Below are positions 375 through 12,990 of a stretch of 64,000 nt of DNA, one piece after another. This stretch comes from Minisyncoccota bacterium (GTDB lineage Bacteria; Patescibacteriota; Minisyncoccia; Phycocordibacterales; SBAW01). The translations under genes were made by a program, and so were the position numbers. Within the stretch, counting starts at the first letter, position 1. Each line of letters opens with the position of its first letter. The notes under the pieces are model-generated. The model was given only the letters and a program-made list of their open reading frames with translations. It had not been told where the DNA came from and ran no database searches. The stretch spans positions 662-64,661 of the forward strand of contig DATKGU010000003.1 of the NCBI GenBank assembly GCA_035510635.1. The letters are read 5' to 3'.

Positions 375-449
375 TCGTCCATTCCAACTCTGGCGACCGT
401 AAATGCAAGTCGCATTAGACGCGCGAGGTGCCCATGTAATTCTATTTCG

Positions 450-1394
450 TTAAAACCCTTCTGGCGGTTTAGTGTGTATAAAGCTATTCACACTAATTAC
501 CTTACCTTGCTCTTTTTCTAGAAAATACGTGAGCACTTCTTTGAGATCAGGCATCTTAGAGTGATCGATGGTTTTGATGAAGTTGGTAAACCCCGCTTTG
601 TTTTCGAAGAAGTTTCTCTGCGGTTGTACTACGTCATGGTCGATGAGTTCGCTCTTCAGAATTTCGTTATTAAAATATGAGACGACCGCCTTGTGTATTT
701 CACTCACGAAATCCCTCTCGTTTCTGGGTGCAGAATAATACTCGCCATGGGATAACTGATTACGAAGCCCTGCCGTGTTCTCAAAAATGTCACTAGCCAA
801 TTTGTCGCCGAGAATACTTTTATACAAATCTATAGCGTCGGGAAATGCCGTTTTATTCCTTTTGCGCCCAAGCGCTTCGATGGCTGCAAACATAAGGAGT
901 AATTTTGACGAATACCCAGTTGTGTTGGTAGCGTCGTTCCAGTAGAGATAAAAATCATTCGGTATCGTCGCCTCTGCATACAGCGTCCCAATGGCCTGCC
1001 CGTGCCTCTGAAGTAAAAGCAAACCCTGAGCATCTCGATCTCTGGTAAAGCGGAACAGTCCAGTGCTAGGGAATGAATCGGATCTAGTGATTAAAAAAGG
1101 CTCAAGGACGAATCGAACATAGCCTTGGCTCACCAGAGAAATTCTGGAAGTTATCTTCTCCAGTTTGTCGATGAAATGTGCGTAGGCCTTCTCCCAGTCC
1201 GCTGCGTTGATCTTCGCGCTTGCGAACCAAAAATCTCCGGTCGGGCCGGTCTGGATAGTGAAGTGCTCCTGTCGAAAAATAATTCCGTCCACGACAAAGC
1301 TCGGATCAGTTCCGTCTCCCATCGCGAGATGACTGATTGATCGGATTCGATGCTCGATGAAGTATTCGTTCATGATCCTAATACTCTGTTGCAC
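450..1394 (-). CDS. HEPN-domain (Rx4H) Abi-like protein, possibly Apea/Abi family. Likely true start MNEYF at 1373.
   Basis: C-terminal motif TAGLRNQLSHGEYY (R-x4-H followed by G) typical of HEPN RNase-like abortive-infection proteins. Paralogous motif context to ORF 4687-5799. Confidence 0.5.
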   Translation of the reverse strand: MQQSIRIMNEYFIEHRIRSISHLAMGDGTDPSFVVDGIIFRQEHFTIQTGPTGDFWFASAKINAADWEKAYAHFIDKLEKITSRISLVSQGYVRFVLEPFLITRSDSFPSTGLFRFTRDRDAQGLLLLQRHGQAIGTLYAEATIPNDFYLYWNDATNTTGYSSKLLLMFAAIEALGRKRNKTAFPDAIDLYKSILGDKLASDIFENTAGLRNQLSHGEYYSAPRNERDFVSEIHKAVVSYFNNEILKSELIDHDVVQPQRNFFENKAGFTNFIKTIDHSKMPDLKEVLTYFLEKEQGKVISVNSFIHTKPPEGF

Positions 1395-2193
1395 TACGCT
1401 GTTCTGCGTCCTTGAGAGCTTTCTCCACTTCTGAGTCGATTATCTTTTCGATTCGCTCAAAGGAATCGAGAGTTCGTAACTTAGCTCGTTCAGCCTTCGG
1501 CATAAAGAACTTAAAGCTCGGGCTCTCCATCTTCCACCACATGTAATAGCCTCGCCAATGTCGCTTTCGCAGACGATCGTTATAAATTTTTATTCGCGTG
1601 AGTGCCTTGATCGGCTCACTCATTTTCTTGTTGGCGTAGGCTTCAATTCCATCGGCGAAGGCTTCGAGATTTTGAGCGTAGGCGAGTCGTTGTGTCGGCG
1701 GGTCTGGGTTCGGGCCACTTTGCATCAAGGCGACAAGGGTTTCGTTCCCCCTGAGCATATCCTCAAAGTCTGGCTTTAGTTGCGAGAGAATACGATTCAT
1801 CTCTTTGATTCGGCTGTCAGAAAAGAGAGATTGATTGTGCAGGTAATAACTCCTAATTTTCAGGGTATGAATGTCGGGATCTCGATACACATCCAAAAAT
1901 GCGGGACAGTTGATACGGTCGAGCGCGAATGCGTTTGGACGCGTCTCCGCCCGTGTTTCTGCTGATAAGGCTCTGATTTTCTTCGCAAAATCTCTCAACT
2001 GAGCTCTGGTGAAATAAATGTCATTGAGTGCTGCGGTCGACCCGACTTCAATGCGTCGCATGGTTTCCCTTATCTCGGCGTTTTTCTCGAGCTTCGATTT
2101 TATGCTAAATCCAATGGCTGAGAGGATGACAGCCAAAAAAGGGCCGAGTCCAGCGCCTATGAGGGTCTGCCATTTGTTTAAAAAATCACCCAT
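1378..2193 (-). CDS. Membrane-anchored hypothetical protein (N-terminal TM helix, helical cytoplasmic domain). Overlaps the start of the HEPN gene by 17 nt, so probably an operon partner.
   Basis: Hydrophobic stretch LIGAGLGPFLAVILSAIGFSI at residues 10-30; 17-nt overlap with the downstream ORF. Confidence 0.5.
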   Translation of the reverse strand: MGDFLNKWQTLIGAGLGPFLAVILSAIGFSIKSKLEKNAEIRETMRRIEVGSTAALNDIYFTRAQLRDFAKKIRALSAETRAETRPNAFALDRINCPAFLDVYRDPDIHTLKIRSYYLHNQSLFSDSRIKEMNRILSQLKPDFEDMLRGNETLVALMQSGPNPDPPTQRLAYAQNLEAFADGIEAYANKKMSEPIKALTRIKIYNDRLRKRHWRGYYMWWKMESPSFKFFMPKAERAKLRTLDSFERIEKIIDSEVEKALKDAEQRSATEY

Positions 2194-2216
2194 GGGCTTA
2201 ATGGTAATATAGATGC

Positions 2217-3917
2217 ATGAGAGTTGACAGTAAAAAAGTACAACTCGCCCAGCCGTTTATCCCGGGTCTTTCTCCGATCCAATCAGCTGTAGATGAACTA
2301 GCTGCGGCGAACATCGATGACCGCGGCGCAATTTTCACCCGTCGGGAAGTGGTCGACTTTATACTCGATCTCGTCGGCTACACACCTGATAAATCGTTGC
2401 AGGACTTTCGACTGCTAGAGCCGTCATTCGGTCATGGCGATTTTCTTATTCCTGCGATTGAGAGGCTGATGATGTCGATCAAGCGGCAGAAATTACTGCC
2501 AACTGCGGATCTTTTGAAGGAGAGTATTCGTGGGGTGGAACTGCATGTAGCTTCATTCGGAAAAACTGTAAGCGAAGTTAGAGAGATTCTCATTAAAAAC
2601 GAACTTCGGGAGCGTGACGCGGACGAGGTACTAGACGCGTGGTTTGTCCGCGGGGACTTTCTCCTCTCGTTCTTCGGTCAGTCTTTTACTCATGTCGTTG
2701 GTAATCCACCGTATATACGACAGGAAATGGTACCGAACGCACTGATGGCCGAATATCGTCGTCGCTTTGATACCATCTACGATCGTGCTGACATTTACGT
2801 GCCGTTCATCGAGTATTCTCTCAGGCTCCTCGACGAAGGCGGTGTTCTCGGATTTATTTGTGCCGATCGTTGGATGAAAAATCGTTATGGCGGTCCGCTT
2901 CGCGACCTTGTGGCGGCAGAATTTCATCTTCGTGCATATGTCGACATGATCAACACGCACGCCTTTCATTCCGAAGTGATCGCGTATCCGGCAATAACTG
3001 TGATTGCGCGCGAGCCTTCCGGCCCGACACGTATCGCCAAACAACCGGAAATAGAAGCAGGGGCGCTTGAACAACTCTCGAAAGCCCTCAGACAAGATGC
3101 GCCGCATAGCAAAATCCTTCAGACGACCGTGCGGGAGGGCGGGCCATGGACGCTCGACGAATCTGATGCTCTCACGTTCATGCGTCGCCTTGAAGTTGAA
3201 TTCCCGACACTTGAGGAAGCTGGTTGCAAGGTAGGCATTGGTGTCGCAACTGGAGCCGATAGTGTCTTCATTGCTCCTTTCGCGGAGCTCGACGTAGAAG
3301 TTGATCGCAAATTGCCGCTCGCAATGACCAAGGACATACAGAGCGGGAAGGTCGAATGGCGCGGGTTTGGCGTGATAAATCCTTTTGGCGAAGACGGTAA
3401 GCTAGTCTCGCTTTCCGAGTATCCGAAACTGCGTGATTATCTGGAACAGCACAGCGAGACGATCAAGAGCCGTCACGTCTCCAAGAAAAACCCGAATGGC
3501 TGGTACCGGACAATCGATCGCATTTATCCTGAATTGGTGGCGAAACCGAAGCTCCTAATCCCTGACATTAAAGGTGACGCGCATATTGTGTACGAAGAGG
3601 GTAAATTCTATCCGCATCACAACCTCTACTACATAACTTCGGACAGCTGGGATCTGCAGGCACTCAGGTCCGTACTATCTTCCGGCATCGCACGTCTTTT
3701 CATCGAGGCATATTCAACGCGGATGCATGGGAACTGCCTTCGTTTCCAAGCTCAGTACTTGCGGCGCATACGCCTTCCGCAATGGTCTGATGTACCGAAA
3801 GACCTCCGTCGTCAGCTGCGTATTGCCGCTGAAAAGGACGATGTTGCTGCACGCGAAGATGCCGTCTCTCGTCTCTACTCCCTATCACCGTCTGAACGTG
3901 CTACGATTTATAGGTAA
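2217..3917 (+). CDS. Type II N6-adenine DNA methyltransferase (gamma-class, Eco57I/PaeR7I-like).
   Basis: Motif [11 protein letters not shown] (xPxxGxGxFL) and motif [10 protein letters not shown] (NPPY); 566 aa; stop TAA overlaps the ATG of the downstream ORF (TAATG). Confidence 0.85.
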
Positions 3918-4651
3918 TGACTGTAAATCTCGCGCAGTATGAAGATGGCGCTAAGCGCGCCGTAAAGCTCTTCTGGGGCAACCGAGCTACTGCTACTCAG
4001 CAGCAACTTGCTTCCGGAGCCGTCGATCATGGCACGCGCGGAGCGGTCACCGCCGGAAAGAACATGGATGGATTTGCTTCGCTCATGGCGGAGCTTGTTA
4101 AGGCTAATGGCCTCACAAATGCAACTGTTATCCACGGCGGCCGTCTCGTCACGCTCCCGGGCTTCTTCCGTCCAACCAAGCAATGGGATTTGCTCGTTCT
4201 CAATAGTGGGCATCTCGTCGCTGCGCTTGAATTCAAGTCACAAGTCGGATCATTCGGTAATAACTTCAACAACCGCACTGAGGAAGCGATCGGAACGGCG
4301 CATGATCTATGGATCGCATACCGTGAGGGGGCATTCGGCGAACAGCCAAAACCTTTCGTTGGATGGTTGATGCTCCTCGAAGATGCGCCGGGCTCTCGCT
4401 CGCCGGTGAATGACAAATCACCCCATTTTCCACTATTTTCTGACTTTAAGAACGCGTCCTATGCAGACCGCTACAACATCCTTTGTAAAAAGCTCGTGCA
4501 AGAAGGTCTCTATACAGCCGCCTCTGTTTTAATCTCGCCGCAAACCGCAAAAGACACCGGCGAATACGCAGACATGAGCGATCTCAGCAGTCTGCAAACC
4601 TTCGTGGCTACCTTTGCTGGGCACATTGCCGCTGAAGCAGCACGAAAGTAG
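3917..4651 (+). CDS. Putative Type II restriction endonuclease, cognate to the upstream methyltransferase. Size and gene order resemble XhoI/PaeR7I-family (CTCGAG) enzymes (hypothesis).
   Basis: 244-aa ORF translationally coupled (TAATG) to the methyltransferase. M-then-R order and sizes match the PaeR7I system (N6A methyltransferase ~530 aa, endonuclease ~246 aa). No direct catalytic motif could be verified by eye. Confidence 0.55.
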
Positions 4652-4686: not shown

Positions 4687-5799
4687 ATGGGTGGACATCT
4701 TTCAGTTACATATTTTCCGTTCCTCAACATGGACGGCGCGAAGGAGATCGACTTCGGGTTTCTCAAAATCTGGAACTTCTCAGCGATGAAGGATACCTAC
4801 GTCCCCGACCAAGCCACGCGCGAACACCTCGAAAAGATCTTCGCCATGCACCAGTCGTACGGGAAGCCGATTGAAGGCATCGGGGTCGTCTCGATCGGGG
4901 CGACAGACTTCAGGGCTTTTACGGAGGACGAGTATCGAAAAATCCGCGCCGCGCGGCTGATCCTTTTTCTCTCTTTTATCGACAGAAACAATACGGGGCA
5001 CGACCCAAACGCCGGCCACTCGATGGTAACGTCCGATACCTTCGATCTCTACACGCAGGGCTTCATCGTCGGCGACGATCACCTCTCAGACCGAGCGGGT
5101 GAGATTATTTCTTTCTTGAGAGGCGGCTTCGAGCTCGGCCGCACCGTGTTTGAAAGACCGGGCTTCGTGCCAGCGCATTTTATGTTCGCGCTCAGCAGCG
5201 ACCTGTTCAGTAGCCTGCGGGACATGCAAGCAAAAAGGCCTCGCGTGTTCGAAAAAGTCATTACCGCGACCGAGCTTTTTTTCGAGAGCTACTACAACGG
5301 TCCGCAGCTCAGCAAGAACGCTCGCGTGCTGTTGCAAGCGAGTGCATTCGAGGTATTGCTGGACCTGCCGGAAAGGGATCAACGCAAGCACTTCAAAGAA
5401 GCAATCGGCACGCTAACGAACCTACCGGGCGAGAAGACCTATACGCACTTTTCCGAGAGAACTGGGAGACTCAAAGTCAGGGAGAAAATTACGATCAAGC
5501 AGATCTGGGCGGACTTGTTTTACACTCTCCGGAACCACATCATCCACGGCAATACTCCAAAGAGCAGCGACTTTGTATTCAAGGGTGCACGGCACACGGA
5601 CATCACCGTCCAGTTTTTCGTTCTCTGTGTCCGGAAGCTGATCGAAAAAAAACTCCCGGGGCACCCGTGCGATCACCTCATCGAGTGGGGTTCGTGGGAG
5701 GACGCCTCACAAACACCGCCGACGCGTGTGAACGGATTTGTATATCGCGTTGAAATAATGAAAAAAATTGCGCGCGCCCTAAAAAAGAAGAGCCCTTAA
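4687..5799 (+). CDS. Second HEPN-like (Rx4H) protein, divergent paralog of ORF 450-1394.
   Basis: Motif FYTLRNHIIHGNT (R-x4-H-G) about 60 aa from the C-terminus; upstream helix SAFEVLLDL parallels AAIEALG in the other protein; SD GGGAGG upstream. Confidence 0.5.
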   Translation: MGGHLSVTYFPFLNMDGAKEIDFGFLKIWNFSAMKDTYVPDQATREHLEKIFAMHQSYGKPIEGIGVVSIGATDFRAFTEDEYRKIRAARLILFLSFIDRNNTGHDPNAGHSMVTSDTFDLYTQGFIVGDDHLSDRAGEIISFLRGGFELGRTVFERPGFVPAHFMFALSSDLFSSLRDMQAKRPRVFEKVITATELFFESYYNGPQLSKNARVLLQASAFEVLLDLPERDQRKHFKEAIGTLTNLPGEKTYTHFSERTGRLKVREKITIKQIWADLFYTLRNHIIHGNTPKSSDFVFKGARHTDITVQFFVLCVRKLIEKKLPGHPCDHLIEWGSWEDASQTPPTRVNGFVYRVEIMKKIARALKKKSP

Positions 5800-5803
5800 C
5801 GGC

Positions 5804-7009
5804 TTATTGCGATCCGTATTGCGGAATATCGCCGTACTGCGGGTTGCCCGTCTCTATCGCATCCTCGGCGGTGCGTAAGTCGGAAGGAAGGACGACGCAG
5901 CCTATGTATTCCTTGTTCGGATTGCTCTCCGCCATCGTGCTATCCACTTCGCGCAGGAACGCGCACATGTGTACGTCGTTGCCGATGGCGGAGAGGCCGG
6001 ACCAGTTGATCTGACTGAAGGTGCCGAGATCCATGTCGTACGACATGATCATGCTGGTTTTTGAGTTGCCGTACTGATCGGTCGTCTGCCCGTAGTAGCG
6101 GATGAGCACGTCGGTGAAGTCCGAGTCGACGGGAAACACATGCTGGAAGATAGCCGTGCTCAAGAGGCCGGTGTCGGTGATGATCGAATTATCATCAAGC
6201 TCTTCGCTGAGGTTCAGATCGACGGTCACGTTATCCGTGCCGGGCGGCACGGCTTGGTCGCTGTCGATCTCCACGTCCCCGAGAGTAGCCTGCGAATTGA
6301 GCTGTGCTTGTACTGCCGCTTCCGCTTTCTGCTGCGGAGATAGCGGCGCGGATGACGAAGGGGTCTCCGTGCACTGCGCGTTCGTGTCGGCACCGGTGCC
6401 GTGCGCTGTCTGCAGCGTCTCGCAGAGACTCAGAGGATCGGCTTGAGCGGGATCAGTCCAGTCCGTGCCGGCGTATGTTTTCTGATCTATCGTGTATGCG
6501 ATGAGCGGAGCGTTCTGCGAGGCGGTGGTCGTCGCAAAGTAGGTCACGGTCAACGATGACACGGGATACCCCTGTCCGAAGACGCTAGAAAACAAAGGAA
6601 CGGTATACGGGCCGGTGAGTCCCGCAACGACCGACTCGTCGACGCCGAGAAAGTTCGCCGGCACACCGAGGTTCACGCTGACCGCGCCTGCGTTATTGAT
6701 CGTCGTGCCCTCATACGTGGCAGCGCCTTTGAGCTTGCTTGCGACGACAGATTGCACGGCGCTCTCGATGGCCGATGTCTGCGCCGATGAGAGAACAGGA
6801 GTTGCGGGAACGATTGCTGCGGCTTGAGTTACTGTCGAAGGTGACGAAAGAGATGTGAGACCAAGTATGACAAAAGACGCGCCGGCGATACCACCGAAAA
6901 CATACCTCACGTGCTTACTCGACGACATTCGCACGAAGCGGGGCTTGATACTGCCGACGACGAGGGCGACAAGCGACGCAAGAAATATAACAACGAGGAG
7001 AGTATCCAT
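5804..7009 (-). CDS. Secreted or membrane-anchored Ser/Thr/Ala-rich low-complexity protein (putative surface protein).
   Basis: N-terminal hydrophobic helices (LLVVIFLASLVALVVG; GGIAGASFVILGLTSL); long S/T/A-rich region; Cys-containing C-terminal domain. Confidence 0.55.
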   Translation of the reverse strand: MDTLLVVIFLASLVALVVGSIKPRFVRMSSSKHVRYVFGGIAGASFVILGLTSLSSPSTVTQAAAIVPATPVLSSAQTSAIESAVQSVVASKLKGAATYEGTTINNAGAVSVNLGVPANFLGVDESVVAGLTGPYTVPLFSSVFGQGYPVSSLTVTYFATTTASQNAPLIAYTIDQKTYAGTDWTDPAQADPLSLCETLQTAHGTGADTNAQCTETPSSSAPLSPQQKAEAAVQAQLNSQATLGDVEIDSDQAVPPGTDNVTVDLNLSEELDDNSIITDTGLLSTAIFQHVFPVDSDFTDVLIRYYGQTTDQYGNSKTSMIMSYDMDLGTFSQINWSGLSAIGNDVHMCAFLREVDSTMAESNPNKEYIGCVVLPSDLRTAEDAIETGNPQYGDIPQYGSQ

Positions 7010-7296: not shown

Positions 7297-8019
7297 ATGA
7301 CGGCGGGAGATGAGACGGAAATACAGAGAACCAGATTGATACTGGGTCTATTGAAGCAGCATCTCAATGAAGAAAGTCGTGTCGCATTTTTGTCACTCGA
7401 TACTTTGCGGAAAGTCAAAGACGCGCCCCTCGGTAGTACGACTGCCATAGAGAAAACGCTCGAATGGATTGTCGATGCGTCGAACGGAGAAATAACTTTC
7501 GACGTCGTAGAAACACCGACAATGTGGCAGCGAGAAGTTGATACTGCGCATCCTGATCCTGAGCCGCCTGTTTTCGGACCACTCGTTAAATCCGGCTTCA
7601 GGGTATGGGTATCGAATCCCAAGAAAATAGACGAATACTTCAATGCGATCCTCAAAGAGAAAAATCTATCGGTCAAAAAACCGCGCTCAAAGAAAAAGCC
7701 GTTTTTCAGCGAGATCGTGATCGGCAAGTTACATGCATGCGCTGACGGTCTAATCAGGTTTGGGGGAAATGTCGTCGACATGCGACCTCAGCTCGCGACG
7801 CTCTGTTGGCTTTTTATGGAGCATGAGGGAGCCCTCGTCACGATTGATGATATTAAAGAGCGCATTATCGAGGCGAGCAAACGAGCCGGCACCTCAAATA
7901 CGACGATAGCAAAGTATGTCAGCGAACTTCACCGACCCCTCCAAGATGTGTATGGGGGTGAGGTAATTTTCAACGAGAAGGATATTGGCTGGCGTTTTGA
8001 GCCAGAACGAACAGCCTAA
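7297..8019 (+). CDS. Transcriptional regulator with C-terminal OmpR/PhoB-type winged-helix DNA-binding domain (no receiver domain).
   Basis: C-terminus ...LATLCWLFMEHEGALVTIDDIKERI...YVSELHRPLQDVYGGEVIFNEKDIGWRFE matches the trans_reg_C pattern (L..ELL..L..N.G.VVSR..L...VWG...YV..LR.KL.....I.TVRG.GYRF). Confidence 0.5.
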   Translation: MTAGDETEIQRTRLILGLLKQHLNEESRVAFLSLDTLRKVKDAPLGSTTAIEKTLEWIVDASNGEITFDVVETPTMWQREVDTAHPDPEPPVFGPLVKSGFRVWVSNPKKIDEYFNAILKEKNLSVKKPRSKKKPFFSEIVIGKLHACADGLIRFGGNVVDMRPQLATLCWLFMEHEGALVTIDDIKERIIEASKRAGTSNTTIAKYVSELHRPLQDVYGGEVIFNEKDIGWRFEPERTA

Positions 8020-8685: not shown

Positions 8686-10437
8686 ATGAAAACAACAGGA
8701 AAATTGAATTACGGAGGATACTCGCGCAAGTCGAGCGAGGCGGAAGATAAGCAAGCGCTCTCGATCGACTCGCAGATTGATGAACTCAAGAAGCTCGCCG
8801 CAAGCAAGAAAATCGTACTACGAGATGAAGACATAATGCAGGAAGCGCATTCAGCAAAAAGTGCCTTCGCCCGCCCCGTATTCGAATTGCTTATCAAGCA
8901 CATCGAGCAACGCAAGGTGCAAGGCTTACTTGTGTGGCATCCAAACCGGCTCTCACGCAACGCCGTCGACGCGGCGCGCCTTATCCAACTGATGGACGAA
9001 GGGAAACTCGTCGAGATAGTTACGCCGAGCCAGACGTTCCATGACACGCCGCAAGACAAGTTCTTCTTCACGCTCATGACCAGCCAAGCAAAAATGGAGA
9101 ACGATGCGAAAGGCATCGATGTAAAGCGCGGACTCCGAAAAAAGAACGAGATGGGGTACCCAGCCGGCGTCGCCAAACTGGGGTACGTCAATGACTACGG
9201 CGAAAAGGGATATCGGAAGCTCGAGGCGGACCCTGAGCGCTTCGAACTCGTAAAACAGCTGCTACTCATGTTTCTTTCGGGAAAGCACTCTGCACGAGCA
9301 CTCCTGAAGCACTCAACCAATGTCATGCGACTGCATACGATCCAGCGCAAAAAAGAAGGCGGCCGACCTATCCAACTCTCTCGTATTTATACGATGCTGC
9401 AAGACCCATTCTATGCAGGCTTCTTCTGGGCCAAAGACGAAAACAGAGAAACCAAGCGATATGAGGTCAACGAGGCTGTGCCGCGAATGATTACGGAAGC
9501 CCAGTACTGGGAGATACAGACCATGCTCGGCCGGAACGGTATCCCGCGCCCGACCCTTAACAAGGATTCGTTTCCGTACGCTGGTAGGACGCGATGCGGA
9601 AACTGTAACGGTACGGTGATTGCGGAACACAAGCACCAATTGATCTGCCCAAACTGCCGGAATAAATTCGCATACAAAAACAAAGAGGTGTGTCCGCGTT
9701 GCGACACCCGAATAGATCGCATGGAAAACGCGACATACCTCCACTACATCTACTACCACTGCAATAAAGGCAAAAACCCGACCTGCGAGGAGCCGAGCAT
9801 CCAGCAGTCGGGTATAGACGAATCCATGGCGAAGCGCATCGAACAGGAGCTCGAAACGTCGAGGGCCCTTAGTGAATGGTGCATCCAGCACCTTGAGATT
9901 ATCGCGGGCGAAGAGCGCAAAAATGAGTACGAGCGCAAAGAAGGCCTAAAGCGCGAGCTGGCGCAAAAAGAAAAAGAGAGCGAAGAACTCATTCGCATGC
10001 GCATGAAAGGCCTTATCGAGGACGATGACGAGTTCCTGCGATACAAGGAAGGGCTGGAGAGCGACAAGCGCCGAATAAAGCAAGTTCTAGACGACATGGG
10101 CGGAACGGACACCGCGAGTCTCGAGGAGGCAAAGAAAGCCTTCGCCGTGATCGTCGGATTGAGCGCAGTGTTCAAAAGCGGCACATTCGAGGAAAAACAG
10201 GAGGCTTTATCGGTGCTCGGTTCGAACCTAACTTTAAAGGAGAAAAACCTCAACGTTATCAACAAGAAAGTGTTCTTATTGATTTCAAAAGGCCTACTTG
10301 AGGCGAGAGCCAAAAACCCTACGTTCGAACCTAGAAATTATGAGGCAGATAAAGACGAAACGGAGGCATTCGCCTCCGTTCGTCCAACCTTGCTCCGCGA
10401 CCAGGACTCGAACCTGGAACCAACTCCTTACACGTAA
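8686..10437 (+). CDS. Large serine recombinase/integrase (resolvase-type catalytic domain, recombinase domain and zinc-ribbon). The annotated 3' end reads through into the tRNA-Asn 3' exon.
   Basis: N-terminus GYSRKSSEAEDKQALSID...VWHPNRLSRN (catalytic Ser, resolvase fold); Cys clusters CGNCNG...CPNC and CPRC...C (zinc ribbon); coiled-coil C-terminus; 583 aa. Confidence 0.85.
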   Translation: MKTTGKLNYGGYSRKSSEAEDKQALSIDSQIDELKKLAASKKIVLRDEDIMQEAHSAKSAFARPVFELLIKHIEQRKVQGLLVWHPNRLSRNAVDAARLIQLMDEGKLVEIVTPSQTFHDTPQDKFFFTLMTSQAKMENDAKGIDVKRGLRKKNEMGYPAGVAKLGYVNDYGEKGYRKLEADPERFELVKQLLLMFLSGKHSARALLKHSTNVMRLHTIQRKKEGGRPIQLSRIYTMLQDPFYAGFFWAKDENRETKRYEVNEAVPRMITEAQYWEIQTMLGRNGIPRPTLNKDSFPYAGRTRCGNCNGTVIAEHKHQLICPNCRNKFAYKNKEVCPRCDTRIDRMENATYLHYIYYHCNKGKNPTCEEPSIQQSGIDESMAKRIEQELETSRALSEWCIQHLEIIAGEERKNEYERKEGLKRELAQKEKESEELIRMRMKGLIEDDDEFLRYKEGLESDKRRIKQVLDDMGGTDTASLEEAKKAFAVIVGLSAVFKSGTFEEKQEALSVLGSNLTLKEKNLNVINKKVFLLISKGLLEARAKNPTFEPRNYEADKDETEAFASVRPTLLRDQDSNLEPTPYT

Positions 10438-11215: not shown

Positions 11216-11581
11216 ATGAATTACAACATTAAGGGCACGGATATTACGGTGACTCCCGAGATACGCGACTATCTCTCAAAAAAGCTAGAGCGCTTCGACA
11301 AGTTTATGCAGGCAAAAGATGCGGCGCGCGCCGATGTTGAGCTTAGCTACCTCGTTGGCGAGGCAAAAATGTATCGCGCCGAAATTATGTTGTTTGAGCA
11401 AAGCTTGCCGTCGCCCTTGCGTGCGGTGGCGGAGGGCGGTGTGTTGTATGAGGCGATAGACAAAGCGGCGGGCGACATTTTTACCGAGCTTACGCGCGGC
11501 AAAAAAAAGCAGCAGCACGTTTTTCGCCGCGGAGCGGCGAGGATTAAAGACTACCTCCGCGGATTTCGCAGCAGGCCATAG
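11216..11581 (+). CDS. hpf: Ribosome hibernation promoting factor / RaiA (short form).
   Basis: MNYNIKGTDITVTPEIRDYLSKKLERFDKF... characteristic HPF/YfiA N-terminus; 121 aa. Confidence 0.85.
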   Translation: MNYNIKGTDITVTPEIRDYLSKKLERFDKFMQAKDAARADVELSYLVGEAKMYRAEIMLFEQSLPSPLRAVAEGGVLYEAIDKAAGDIFTELTRGKKKQQHVFRRGAARIKDYLRGFRSRP

Positions 11582-12411
11582 GGCATTTCCTTTTTACCCT
11601 CGGGGATTACTTTAAGTATGGTGAGTGCGCCATCTTTGAACTCAGCATCAGTGATGATGACTCGCTTTCCTCCTGTATCAATAAAATGCGCGCGCGGATT
11701 TTTGTCGAACGCGCGGATTTTTAAATAATTTTGCCGAGCATCGCCAGAGAGGTCGATGAGGGAGTCGTCATCGGTAAACTTGCGCGTAAATGTTACTTTG
11801 CTCTCATCTTGCGGCTCGGGTGTTATTTTGCCAGCTAGCCACAATGGTAGTGTCTCGGCGAGCACGTTGCCTCCCTCGGTCGCGAGCAGCTCCTCAAACT
11901 GCGAGCCCGGCATCGGCCATGCATCCTCCTCAAGCTCCACGCGTGCTTGTGCAACAATCGGCCCCGCGTCCATAGCCTCGCTCATCTGCATGATTGATAC
12001 GCCGGTAACTCGCTCGTCGGCCAATATTGCCGAGAGGGCAGGCGAGGGGCCGCGGAACTTTGGCAAAAGCGAGGGGTGCACGTTTAGTGCGCCGCGCCGC
12101 GGCATGTCAAGAAACTTTTTTGGTATAAGTTTGGCATAGGCCGCCACCACAAACACGTCCCACTCGGTGTTTTGCAACTCGGCAAAGAGCTCTTCGTTTT
12201 TGAGCGTCGTCGGCGTAAGCACGTCGATGCCGCGCTCCTTGGCCCACGCTTTGGCAGGGGCCTCTTTGAGCTCCATCCCGCGGCCTGCCGGTTTGTCGGG
12301 CGCGGTTATAACTAAAGCTGGCAAGATTCCGTGGCTCTCGAGTGCATTGAGTACTGTGACCGCAAAGTGCGGCGTGCCAAAAAAAGCAAAAAGCGGTTTT
12401 TTAGTACTCAT
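11551..12411 (-). CDS. fmt: Methionyl-tRNA formyltransferase.
   Basis: N-terminus MSTKKPLFAFFGTPHFAVTVLNAL; def-fmt arrangement. Confidence 0.9.
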   Translation of the reverse strand: MSTKKPLFAFFGTPHFAVTVLNALESHGILPALVITAPDKPAGRGMELKEAPAKAWAKERGIDVLTPTTLKNEELFAELQNTEWDVFVVAAYAKLIPKKFLDMPRRGALNVHPSLLPKFRGPSPALSAILADERVTGVSIMQMSEAMDAGPIVAQARVELEEDAWPMPGSQFEELLATEGGNVLAETLPLWLAGKITPEPQDESKVTFTRKFTDDDSLIDLSGDARQNYLKIRAFDKNPRAHFIDTGGKRVIITDAEFKDGALTILKVIPEGKKEMPYGLLRNPRR

Positions 12412-12414
12412 ATA

Positions 12415-12990
12415 TTAGATGTTATGTTTTTGTTTGAGTTTTTCGCGGGCGCTTTTTAAATCTTGGTCCTCTTCAAGTTTGACTGCTTTGTCGGTATACA
12501 AAATGCCGTCGAGATGGTCATACTCGTGTTGAAATATGTGTCCGATGAGTCCCGAACCATGATAGATAAACGCTTTGCCGGTTTCGTCGAACGCTTTAAT
12601 AGTGGCTTTTTCGTGGCGCATCACGGTGCCATATTTGCCGCGCACCGAGAGACAGCCCTCCGACATCTCTTTTTGTTTGCGGGAGAGGCGGGTGAGCTCG
12701 GGGTTGATAAACACCAAGTCGGGCGGCACGTCGCGGTCGGCATGCTCATCTTCCTCAAAAGCTTTTTTATCTTCGTCAGTTAAAAATGCTTTGCCAGCAA
12801 TCACAAATATGCGTAAGGCCTCGCCGATTTGAGGGGCGGCGATAGCCACGCCAAAATCCTCTTTAGATAAGGCCTTTTTCATATGGGCGATAATTTTTTT
12901 GATAGCCGGCGACGTGATGTCTTTTTTGGCGACTGGCTTTGCCTTTTGTCGAAGCACCAAGGCTCCCGCCTGCACGATAGGGTCTTTCAT
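12415..12990 (-). CDS. def: Peptide deformylase.
   Basis: Motifs GCLS, HEYDHLDG (HExxH); immediately upstream of fmt. Confidence 0.9.
   Translation of the reverse strand: MKDPIVQAGALVLRQKAKPVAKKDITSPAIKKIIAHMKKALSKEDFGVAIAAPQIGEALRIFVIAGKAFLTDEDKKAFEEDEHADRDVPPDLVFINPELTRLSRKQKEMSEGCLSVRGKYGTVMRHEKATIKAFDETGKAFIYHGSGLIGHIFQHEYDHLDGILYTDKAVKLEEDQDLKSAREKLKQKHNI

Follow-up and report, generated by a model that had tools for sequence, protein, structure and literature searches.

Genes A and B, two adjacent open reading frames (ORFs) on the minus strand of a 64,000-nucleotide (nt) stretch of a Candidatus Paceibacterota metagenome-assembled genome (MAG; contig DATKGU010000003.1, positions 662 to 64,661, the whole stretch being referred to as the window), are on balance best read as two autonomous single-gene conflict cassettes. 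According to this reading, they were packed next to each other, with probable co-transcription, in an island borne by a serine recombinase, A being a self-contained HEPN RNase of the abortive infection (Abi) type and B a separate entity. A first-pass annotation had proposed that the two overlapping genes, for a transmembrane (TM) protein and a HEPN protein, form an abortive-infection or toxin system. As a conserved entity, such a system is not supported. The two genes and their flanking signals are the following:

450-1373, minus strand: gene A (NCBI locus tag VMR46_00520), 307-amino-acid (aa) protein, delimited by the ORF, an alignment of 57 homologues and the NCBI call
1378-2193, minus strand: gene B (VMR46_00525), 271-aa membrane-anchored helical-bundle protein, delimited by the ORF and 105 homologues
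2206-2234, minus strand: sigma-70-like promoter match TTTACT-17-TATATT upstream of B, a weak consensus match (1 found, 2.8 expected by chance)
410-426, minus strand: terminator-like hairpin with a T-run, 24 nt past the stop codon of A, a weak consensus match (9 such sites in the region, 2.8 expected)

Both ORFs are real. The longest form of A (450-1394) begins at GTG 1394, and the 17-nt overlap with B reported earlier is an artefact of that form. All 57 aligned homologues open at the equivalent of MNEYF ("MxYxIE") and the protein called by NCBI has 307 aa, hence the start of A is ATG 1371-1373 and not GTG 1394. The stop codon of B (TAG, 1378-1380) is followed by a 4-nt spacer, GATC, and then by the start of A, which amounts to tight packing with zero overlap. 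This spacer and the promoter-like and terminator-like sites on either side of the pair make a single B-A transcript plausible.

The evidence for autonomy comes first from the loci of A. Homologues were followed in 58 genome loci (up to 6 kb scanned) that span the Candidate Phyla Radiation (CPR), Nitrospirota, Nocardia, Gamma- and Alphaproteobacteria, Binatia, Omnitrophota, Elusimicrobia and one Woesearchaeote. Together with the two closest relatives of A this gives 60 loci, 46 of which have at least 1 kb on both sides. A homologue of B was found in none of the 60. The two closest relatives (52% and 48% identity) lack B and have serine recombinases alongside. No other gene takes its place as a regular companion: the most widespread cluster of A neighbours occurs in no more than 8 of the 58 loci, and the recurrent clusters read as HsdS-, HsdR-, HsdM-like or type IIG-like. 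Because a consistent partner is absent across loci, A cannot need an antitoxin. In about 8 of the 58 loci, A forms part of a type I restriction-modification (R-M) operon, and in the window it is located beside a type II R-M system, a pattern that is the HEPN-in-R-M type described previously (PMC3710099).

The loci of B (76 metagenome loci and 13 found by exact-protein look-up) lead to the same picture. In the 84 loci over which co-occurrence was counted, A-type genes are limited to a duplicate of the window (L141), a divergent homologue termed A' (L114, L139, L140) and a stump (L146). B stands without A in about 80 loci, and some 85-90% of B loci are without a recognisable HEPN neighbour. The closest relative of B (82% identity) has neither A nor a HEPN neighbour. 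Instead, a variable gene is packed tightly against either side of B. Among the 65 immediate neighbours of at least 120 aa that were scanned with Pfam, N6_N4 methyltransferases occur seven times, D12 methyltransferases five times, ResIII four times, and HSDR_N and HEPN_AbiU2 three times each, and the remainder include an EcoRI methylase, a C5 methylase, DUF4238, a MutH-like nuclease, SPFH and a trypsin-like protease. Further contexts comprise Rhs/Ntox28 with CdiI_3, AbiEii and GmrSD fragments, a Tsp45I-like enzyme and a patatin. B accompanies many different nuclease-based defence genes.

Two groups of B loci illustrate this range. In three related type I R-M operons (hsdM-hsdS-...-hsdR; L103 5280-9927, L104 2172-9881 and L079 1-5239), the position between hsdS and hsdR is in every case taken by B, which has no companion there (L104), follows an AbiU2 HEPN gene (L103, an arrangement also seen in L127) or follows the gene of a DUF4238 protein (L079). 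In L142 (1-6807), a B homologue (45% identity) comes immediately after the genes of a polymorphic toxin with Rhs/YD repeats and an Ntox28 tip and of its CdiI_3 immunity protein, which places B in a locus of inter-bacterial conflict and not of R-M.

Across genomes, neither the co-occurrence of A and B nor their gene order is conserved. With B missing from every A locus, the closest relatives unpaired, R-M genes prevailing around B and an A' stump beside an intact B, the defined two-gene module or toxin system that had been put forward is unsupported. A and B are two autonomous residents of defence or conflict islands, and their arrangement here is an ordinary juxtaposition.

Both families also occur in DPANN bins, A in L052 (a Woesearchaeota MAG) and B in P0131 (labelled Nanoarchaeota), which might point to transfer across domains between the episymbiotic CPR and DPANN lineages, or to binning errors. 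Neither family was found on IMG/VR viral contigs, and a phage origin of A or B was rejected on that ground.

Family A is small and rare. A word-indexed search returned 68 homologues. When 1.84 billion cluster representatives were searched exhaustively with a profile, 366 of them reached E<=1e-3 and 172 of these E<=1e-30. The best 150 of the 366 are mostly about 300 aa long and match the profile from end to end; the shorter sequences among these 150 match it in part and are fragment-like. An AlphaFold2 (AF2) model of A (mean predicted local distance difference test score, pLDDT, 89.7) and the alignment divide the protein into the following parts:

1029-1373, minus strand: N-terminal α/β domain (residues 1-115) of an antiparallel sheet and a long helix, a candidate sensor or regulatory domain
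657-1010, minus strand: helical HEPN-like domain (residues 122-239), including YWNDAxN, K157, A164 (helix 1) and N235
744-764, minus strand: putative catalytic motif R204-N-Q-L-S-H209-G210 (R-x4-H-G), from sequence and alignment
471-599, minus strand: C-terminal β/α segment (residues 259-301) after the invariant P251-Q-R253 linker, from AF2 secondary structure and alignment

The C-terminal half of A carries TAGLRNQLSHGEYY, with R, H and G encoded by the minus-strand codons at 762-764, 747-749 and 744-746, respectively. A lone R-x4-H string in a protein of about 300 aa is unremarkable because the pattern R-x(4-6)-H matched many unrelated neighbouring ORFs. The significance of the motif lies in its invariance, beyond chance, across sequences that are 31-48% identical to the query: R204, L207, H209, G210 and Y212 are unchanged in all 57 aligned members, and R204, H209 and G210 make up three of the 18 invariant columns. 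Further invariant columns include YWNDAxN (144-150), K157, A164, N235, P251 and R253. The R-x4-H-G motif is also retained in the distant homologue A', as RIRHKLAHG. Hence, A has the conserved R-x(4-6)-H with a polar residue after R that is used to assign proteins to the HEPN superfamily. It likewise has the expected fold, as the model contains a small all-α up-down helical bundle that can be superposed on solved HEPN domains.

Curated libraries are silent on A. Searches of Pfam, PADLOC (2023 release), NCBIfam and PHROGs gave zero matches and thus no curated HEPN-clan model, and all 57 members searched against Pfam and PADLOC returned noise, with a single HEPN_MAE_28990 match at E 0.057 in one member and no consistent match. 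For both A and B, membership in a curated family was considered and rejected, the only signals being noise biased towards coiled coils and TM segments (DUF2273, SlyX, LeoBC). The A profile had 0 matches among PDB sequences, and Foldseek found nothing below E 0.28 for the A model in the PDB. One A homologue bears the label YutE/DUF86 from the Joint Genome Institute (JGI).

A weak similarity is suggested to the family of a second HEPN gene, encoded 3 kb away in the same island:

4687-5799, plus strand: second island HEPN gene, 370 aa, with LRNHIIHG, weakly Apea-like (PF18739 at E 0.0019, below the family cut-off)

PADLOC did not match this protein. PF18739 is precomputed in 3 of 63 homologues, and R282, N283, H284, H287 and G288 are at least 90% conserved among 53 homologues, so the protein looks like a member of a diverged ApeA-like family of CPR. 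An hhalign comparison of A with the profile of this family gave E 0.0064 (probability 6%) over the full length and E 5.9e-4 (probability 29%) for the HEPN domain alone. The alignment is co-linear from helix 1 (YWNDA..LLLMFSAIEAL vs SYYN..LLQASAFEiLL) to the presumptive catalytic LRHRLVHG/LRNHIIHG. The similarity of the profiles is suggestive and falls short of family membership. As a control, the Apea-like and AbiU2-like profiles were compared and did not detect each other. Silence of hidden Markov models is therefore weak evidence against a HEPN assignment. The HEPN-family and PADLOC models by which the first-pass annotation meant its HEPN call to be judged thus yielded no family match, a silence of little weight for the reason just given, and the call itself is borne out as very probable by the invariance of R, H and G, the AF2 model and the Apea-like profile similarity. 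We conclude with considerable confidence that A represents a new family of the HEPN superfamily. It is nearest to the Apea-like HEPNs and yet stands outside ApeA.

The comparison with ApeA (PF18739) is instructive on both sides. ApeA is a ligand-gated tRNA anticodon nuclease and acts as a single-gene anti-phage abortive infection system (10.64898/2026.01.26.701840). Like ApeA, A is a single polypeptide with non-catalytic domains and a C-terminal R-x4-H HEPN domain, is free of an antitoxin and resides in defence islands and R-M operons, and its best, albeit weak, HEPN-domain profile similarity is to the Apea-like family of the same island. A sensor domain that gates a HEPN dimer is likely the logic of both proteins (10.64898/2026.01.26.701840). 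The differences lie in size and domain architecture, because of which A is not an ApeA member. ApeA has about 580 aa in three mostly helical domains (N, Mid and a split HEPN) and forms decameric or dodecameric rings (10.64898/2026.01.26.701840), whereas A has 307 aa with an α/β domain of about 115 aa and a C-terminal segment of about 45 aa. A thus lacks both the 500-600 aa and the N-terminal region of about 300 aa before the split HEPN that mark ApeA (10.64898/2026.01.26.701840, PMC3710099), and no member of family A matches PF18739 or the PADLOC ApeA model.

In its genomic logic, A resembles the HEPN Abi proteins embedded in R-M loci (AbiU2, AbiD/F and AbiJ, with PrrC/RloC as paradigm). Stand-alone HEPN genes within R-M operons are presumed to be a second line of defence (Anantharaman et al. 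2013, PMC3710099). A differs from AbiU2, AbiD/F and AbiJ in that it belongs to none of their models, including PF18734 of AbiU2, and has its own N-terminal domain and motifs (YWNDAxN, PQR), and it differs from PrrC and RloC in lacking an ABC-ATPase.

Gene B belongs to an unusually well conserved family of 105 homologues, 70 of which were aligned with a mean column identity of 54%. Homologues from named organisms are all patescibacterial save one assigned to Nanoarchaeota, and most matches are unnamed metagenome sequences. No family match was found for B in Pfam, PADLOC, NCBIfam or PHROGs, nor for any of the 70 aligned members in Pfam and PADLOC, and the B profile had two chance matches (E above 1) among PDB sequences. 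Either family, A or B, may be catalogued already elsewhere. An AF2 model of B (mean pLDDT 87.4) is all-helical beyond the TM segment, with a continuous helix from residue 2 to 82. The hydrophobic segment and this model confirm the single N-terminal TM helix and helical domain that had been predicted for 1378-2193:

2101-2166, minus strand: single N-terminal TM helix (residues about 10-31, TLIGAGLGPFLAVILSAIGFSI), from sequence and alignment
1384-2100, minus strand: predicted cytoplasmic four-helix-bundle domain with the invariant polar residues R46, Y117, H119 and N120 (SYYLHN), N133, Q168 and E223

The topology is probably N-out/C-in, with the bundle in the cytoplasm, according to the positive-inside rule applied to KSKLEKNAEIRETMRR after the TM helix. 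The invariant polar residues suggest a putative binding or catalytic site within the bundle. The best conserved part of B is the TM helix together with the two residues ahead of it: among residues 8-21, W8, Q9, G13 and G17 are invariant and L11, L16, P18, F19, L20 and A21 are at least 90% conserved. Conservation of the TM helix exceeds that of most of the soluble domain, which is unusual for a simple membrane anchor. This suggests a specific oligomer or membrane assembly, or a membrane partner, rather than a passive anchor.

For the two autonomous cassettes, we infer a mechanism in which the RNase activity of A, its dimerisation, the sensing role of its α/β parts, co-transcription with B and any role of B are all predictions. 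A would dimerise via its HEPN domain such that two R204-x4-H209 motifs together build a single composite RNase site that needs no metal. Until a cue of infection is sensed, the α/β domain made up of the N- and C-terminal parts would keep A inactive, and activated A might then cleave tRNA, rRNA or mRNA and cause cell arrest. A would thereby provide a second line of defence behind the adjacent XhoI-type R-M system. B would act at the membrane as an independent, widely mobile protein of Patescibacteria.

The alternative that survives best, although we consider it fairly unlikely, is a facultative partnership. B would be a modular membrane accessory that teams up with the HEPN RNases A, A' and AbiU2 and perhaps with other nucleases. 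It might be an effector or amplifier in the membrane that the activated RNase sets off, or a sensor located in the membrane that detects phage entry and then switches on the RNase. A would work alone in most genomes and benefit from B in a few. The first-pass annotation stated that a TM partner is not a described standard pairing for a HEPN effector. To call such a partner undescribed would be inaccurate, as Cas13b-Csx28 is a characterised precedent (bioRxiv 10.1101/2021.11.02.466367). In this type VI-B2 CRISPR system, a HEPN RNase is accompanied by a small, optional, defence-enhancing membrane pore protein (10.1101/2021.11.02.466367). The window resembles it in that a HEPN gene lies beside the gene of a small membrane protein, which makes Cas13b-Csx28 the model for a partnership, and the conserved TM segment with its invariant W8, Q9, G13 and G17 might be an indirect hint of a Csx28-like pore. 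The TM helix as the most conserved segment is also what is expected if B acts in the membrane. B differs from Csx28 in that it shows no homology to that protein, has no CRISPR context and lies mostly beside non-HEPN genes.

The residual signal for a partnership comes in part from the B subclade nearest to the window (67-82% identity), which is found in six distinct contexts. In the window, A follows B in tandem. In L139/L140 and L114, an A' of 296-299 aa lies head-to-head with B, and L137/138, L147 and L148/149 have no A-type gene; a 299-aa gene convergent with B in L148 was considered and rejected as A-type. The A' genes are:

L139 4075-4965, minus strand: A'
L140 1513-2403, minus strand: A'
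L114 1737-2636, minus strand: A'
L146 2793-3032, minus strand: A' stump

That A' is truly, if distantly, homologous to A is shown by hhalign (probability 98%, E 1.7e-13, 24% identity over 193 columns that extend from the N-terminal domain to RIRHKLAHG), and A' has an insertion containing CxxC ahead of this motif. A and A' are only 24% identical and yet flank B proteins that are 72% identical, in differing orientations, suggesting repeated recruitment. AbiU2-type genes in L103/L127 and in L074 lie on the same strand directly upstream of B with gaps of 7-16 nt (PF18734 matches in L074, L103 and L127 at E 3.5e-15 to 1.6e-8).

Several of these points weigh against two fully independent cassettes. 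Every A-type or AbiU2-type gene found in a B locus lies directly next to B, which holds for four independent contexts, although immediate neighbours make up 70 of the 298 genes of at least 150 aa in these loci. Expressed as independent HEPN occurrences, four of five are adjacent to B compared with about 23% expected, the fifth being the Apea-like gene of the window at position -3. A binomial estimate gives P ~0.01, a value inflated by an AbiU2 profile that was built from adjacent hits, by a Pfam scan that covered adjacent genes only and by many short contigs. Two independent A-type adjacencies to one B subclade are surprising because family A is rare. The 4-nt spacing of B and A, between promoter-like and terminator-like sites, would permit translational coupling of the two genes. 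Finally, the RNase activity that the autonomous reading assigns to A is predicted from its motif and context.

These observations have to be set against the absence of B from all 60 A loci and the lack of a recognisable HEPN neighbour in about 85-90% of B loci. The orientation varies (tandem downstream, tandem upstream and divergent), and HEPN genes are among the commonest R-M-linked island residents anyway (PMC3710099). In L146, the A' in the same head-to-head position is reduced to a stump of 79 aa and B is intact; as B persists beside a decayed A', it does not need an A-type partner. The residual adjacency can be explained either by a history that related Paceibacterota islands have in common, through the same hotspot or element, or by an optional functional tie.

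A string of genes analogous to the B-A pair, and non-homologous to it, occurs in L010 (152-2747), L011 and L008 (MAGs of Gammaproteobacteria and Saccharibacteria), where a 231-aa protein with two TM segments and a 312-aa protein with VLRNQLAHSGK are encoded directly upstream of A. This analogy counts in favour of a partnership of membrane and R-x4-H proteins. The string sits inside a type I R-M locus, and Pfam finds nothing for either protein. For the TM protein (c18) and the RNQLAHSG protein (c9), homology to B or A was rejected (hhalign E 0.04 and 0.39 over short stretches).

A bolder form of the same idea, which we hold to be slightly less probable still, regards B as a membrane module found throughout Patescibacteria that plugs into type I and type III R-M systems and at least three HEPN families (A, A' and AbiU2) and couples nucleases to the membrane. 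Such a module could sense the entry of a phage genome and switch on the neighbouring nuclease, or could be a Csx28-like effector downstream of the RNase.

It is improbable that A is not a nuclease and instead a generic helical bundle whose conserved R and H serve ligand binding or non-catalytic regulation, as in inactive HEPN domains. The missing HEPN matches in every library searched, the empty Foldseek search of the PDB and the low hhalign probabilities of 6-29% with the Apea-like family would agree with this view. Inactive HEPN domains typically lose the R-x4-H-G signature. In A, this defining catalytic signature, an R with an H at the fifth residue after it and a G next to the H, is invariant, and the distant A' retains it. 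Furthermore, the R-M and defence context matches that of active HEPN families (PMC3710099).

A toxin-antitoxin pair, in which A is the HEPN toxin and B the membrane-anchored antitoxin or immunity protein, or in which the roles are exchanged, is very improbable: it would accommodate the tight same-strand packing with probable co-transcription and the upstream antitoxin partner that HEPN toxins classically have, and it is effectively excluded by the occurrence of A without B or another conserved partner in 60 of 60 loci, which makes dependence on an antitoxin impossible, by the roughly 80 loci in which B stands without A, and by the persistence of B beside the decayed A' of L146, from which it follows that B is not a toxin neutralised by A-type proteins. 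The comparison with HepT-MntA (type II/VII) agrees with this. The adjacent minimal nucleotidyltransferase (MNT) antitoxin and the conserved bicistronic pairing of HEPN-MNT systems are both absent: B is an unrelated all-helical membrane four-helix bundle without a Pfam or nucleotidyltransferase match, A has no conserved partner in 58 loci, and with its extra domains and 307 aa A is twice the size of the minimal HepT toxins (130-150 aa).

The surroundings of A and B confirm the earlier view that the genes sit in a defence island, with R-M genes, the second HEPN gene and a serine recombinase alongside:

2217-4651, plus strand: XhoI-type type II R-M system with methyltransferase (2217-3917, Eco57I/TaqI-type m6A) and endonuclease (3917-4651); PF07669 1e-20, PDLC03313 6e-232, PF04555 2e-87
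8686-10437, plus strand: large serine recombinase (PF00239 7e-22, PF07508), a sign that the island is mobile
11551-12990: housekeeping genes fmt and def, beyond the recombinase

The R-M pair is complete, with base 3917 shared by the stop codon of the methyltransferase and the start of the endonuclease. The methyltransferase gene is divergent from B, and because only 23 nt separate the start codons on opposite strands, the promoters of both genes must overlap coding sequence. Between the HEPN genes and the recombinase lie two further genes, one (5804-7009, minus strand) for a 401-aa protein that has a TM or signal segment at its N-terminus, a Ser/Thr/Ala-rich region and a weak match to a PHROG of unknown function, and one (7297-8019, plus strand) for a 240-aa protein with a weak Trans_reg_C-like winged helix at its C-terminus. 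Downstream of A, a 63-aa ORF without a family match is located on the same strand (183-374), and the start of the window contains a perfect 9-bp inverted repeat (cctgcaacc ... ggttgcagg, 5-37).

Large serine recombinases (Resolvase, Recombinase and zinc ribbon) are also encoded in the nearest relatives (L135 568-1953, L136 5060-6385, L139 2791-4041 and L138 1-1606), where they directly adjoin A-type genes or are no more than 1-3 kb from B, which suggests that small recombinase-borne elements carry A and B cassettes in Paceibacterota. An obligate association of the recombinase with A or B was rejected: A loci contain it in only 5 of 60 cases and B loci in only 6 of 84, which makes it a feature of the lineages nearest to the window. 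No convincing direct repeats of attachment (att) sites bounding the island were found within the window, and no tRNA was found near the island.

Patescibacteria (CPR) largely lack CRISPR-Cas (PMC4742961). Because of this, CPR immunity must rest on R-M and on poorly catalogued Abi-like genes. The window yields two gene families that were missed by the curated libraries searched. Family A, whose members are compact HEPN proteins with an α/β domain of their own, is spread over CPR, Nitrospirota, Actinomycetota, Proteobacteria and DPANN archaea and is typically encoded within R-M loci. Family B, a highly conserved membrane-anchored four-helix bundle, tracks R-M and toxin loci in CPR. The finding does not introduce a new principle, as R-M-linked stand-alone HEPN effectors are already established and A is a new family among them. 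Cataloguing A and B would improve the annotation of CPR defence islands. If the RNase activity of A is confirmed, its small size would make it a convenient model for the gating of a HEPN dimer by a sensor domain. If B does prove to be a membrane module for exchangeable nucleases, the B-A pair of the window would be one case of a "membrane adaptor plus interchangeable nuclease" type of defence in bacteria that are largely free of CRISPR.

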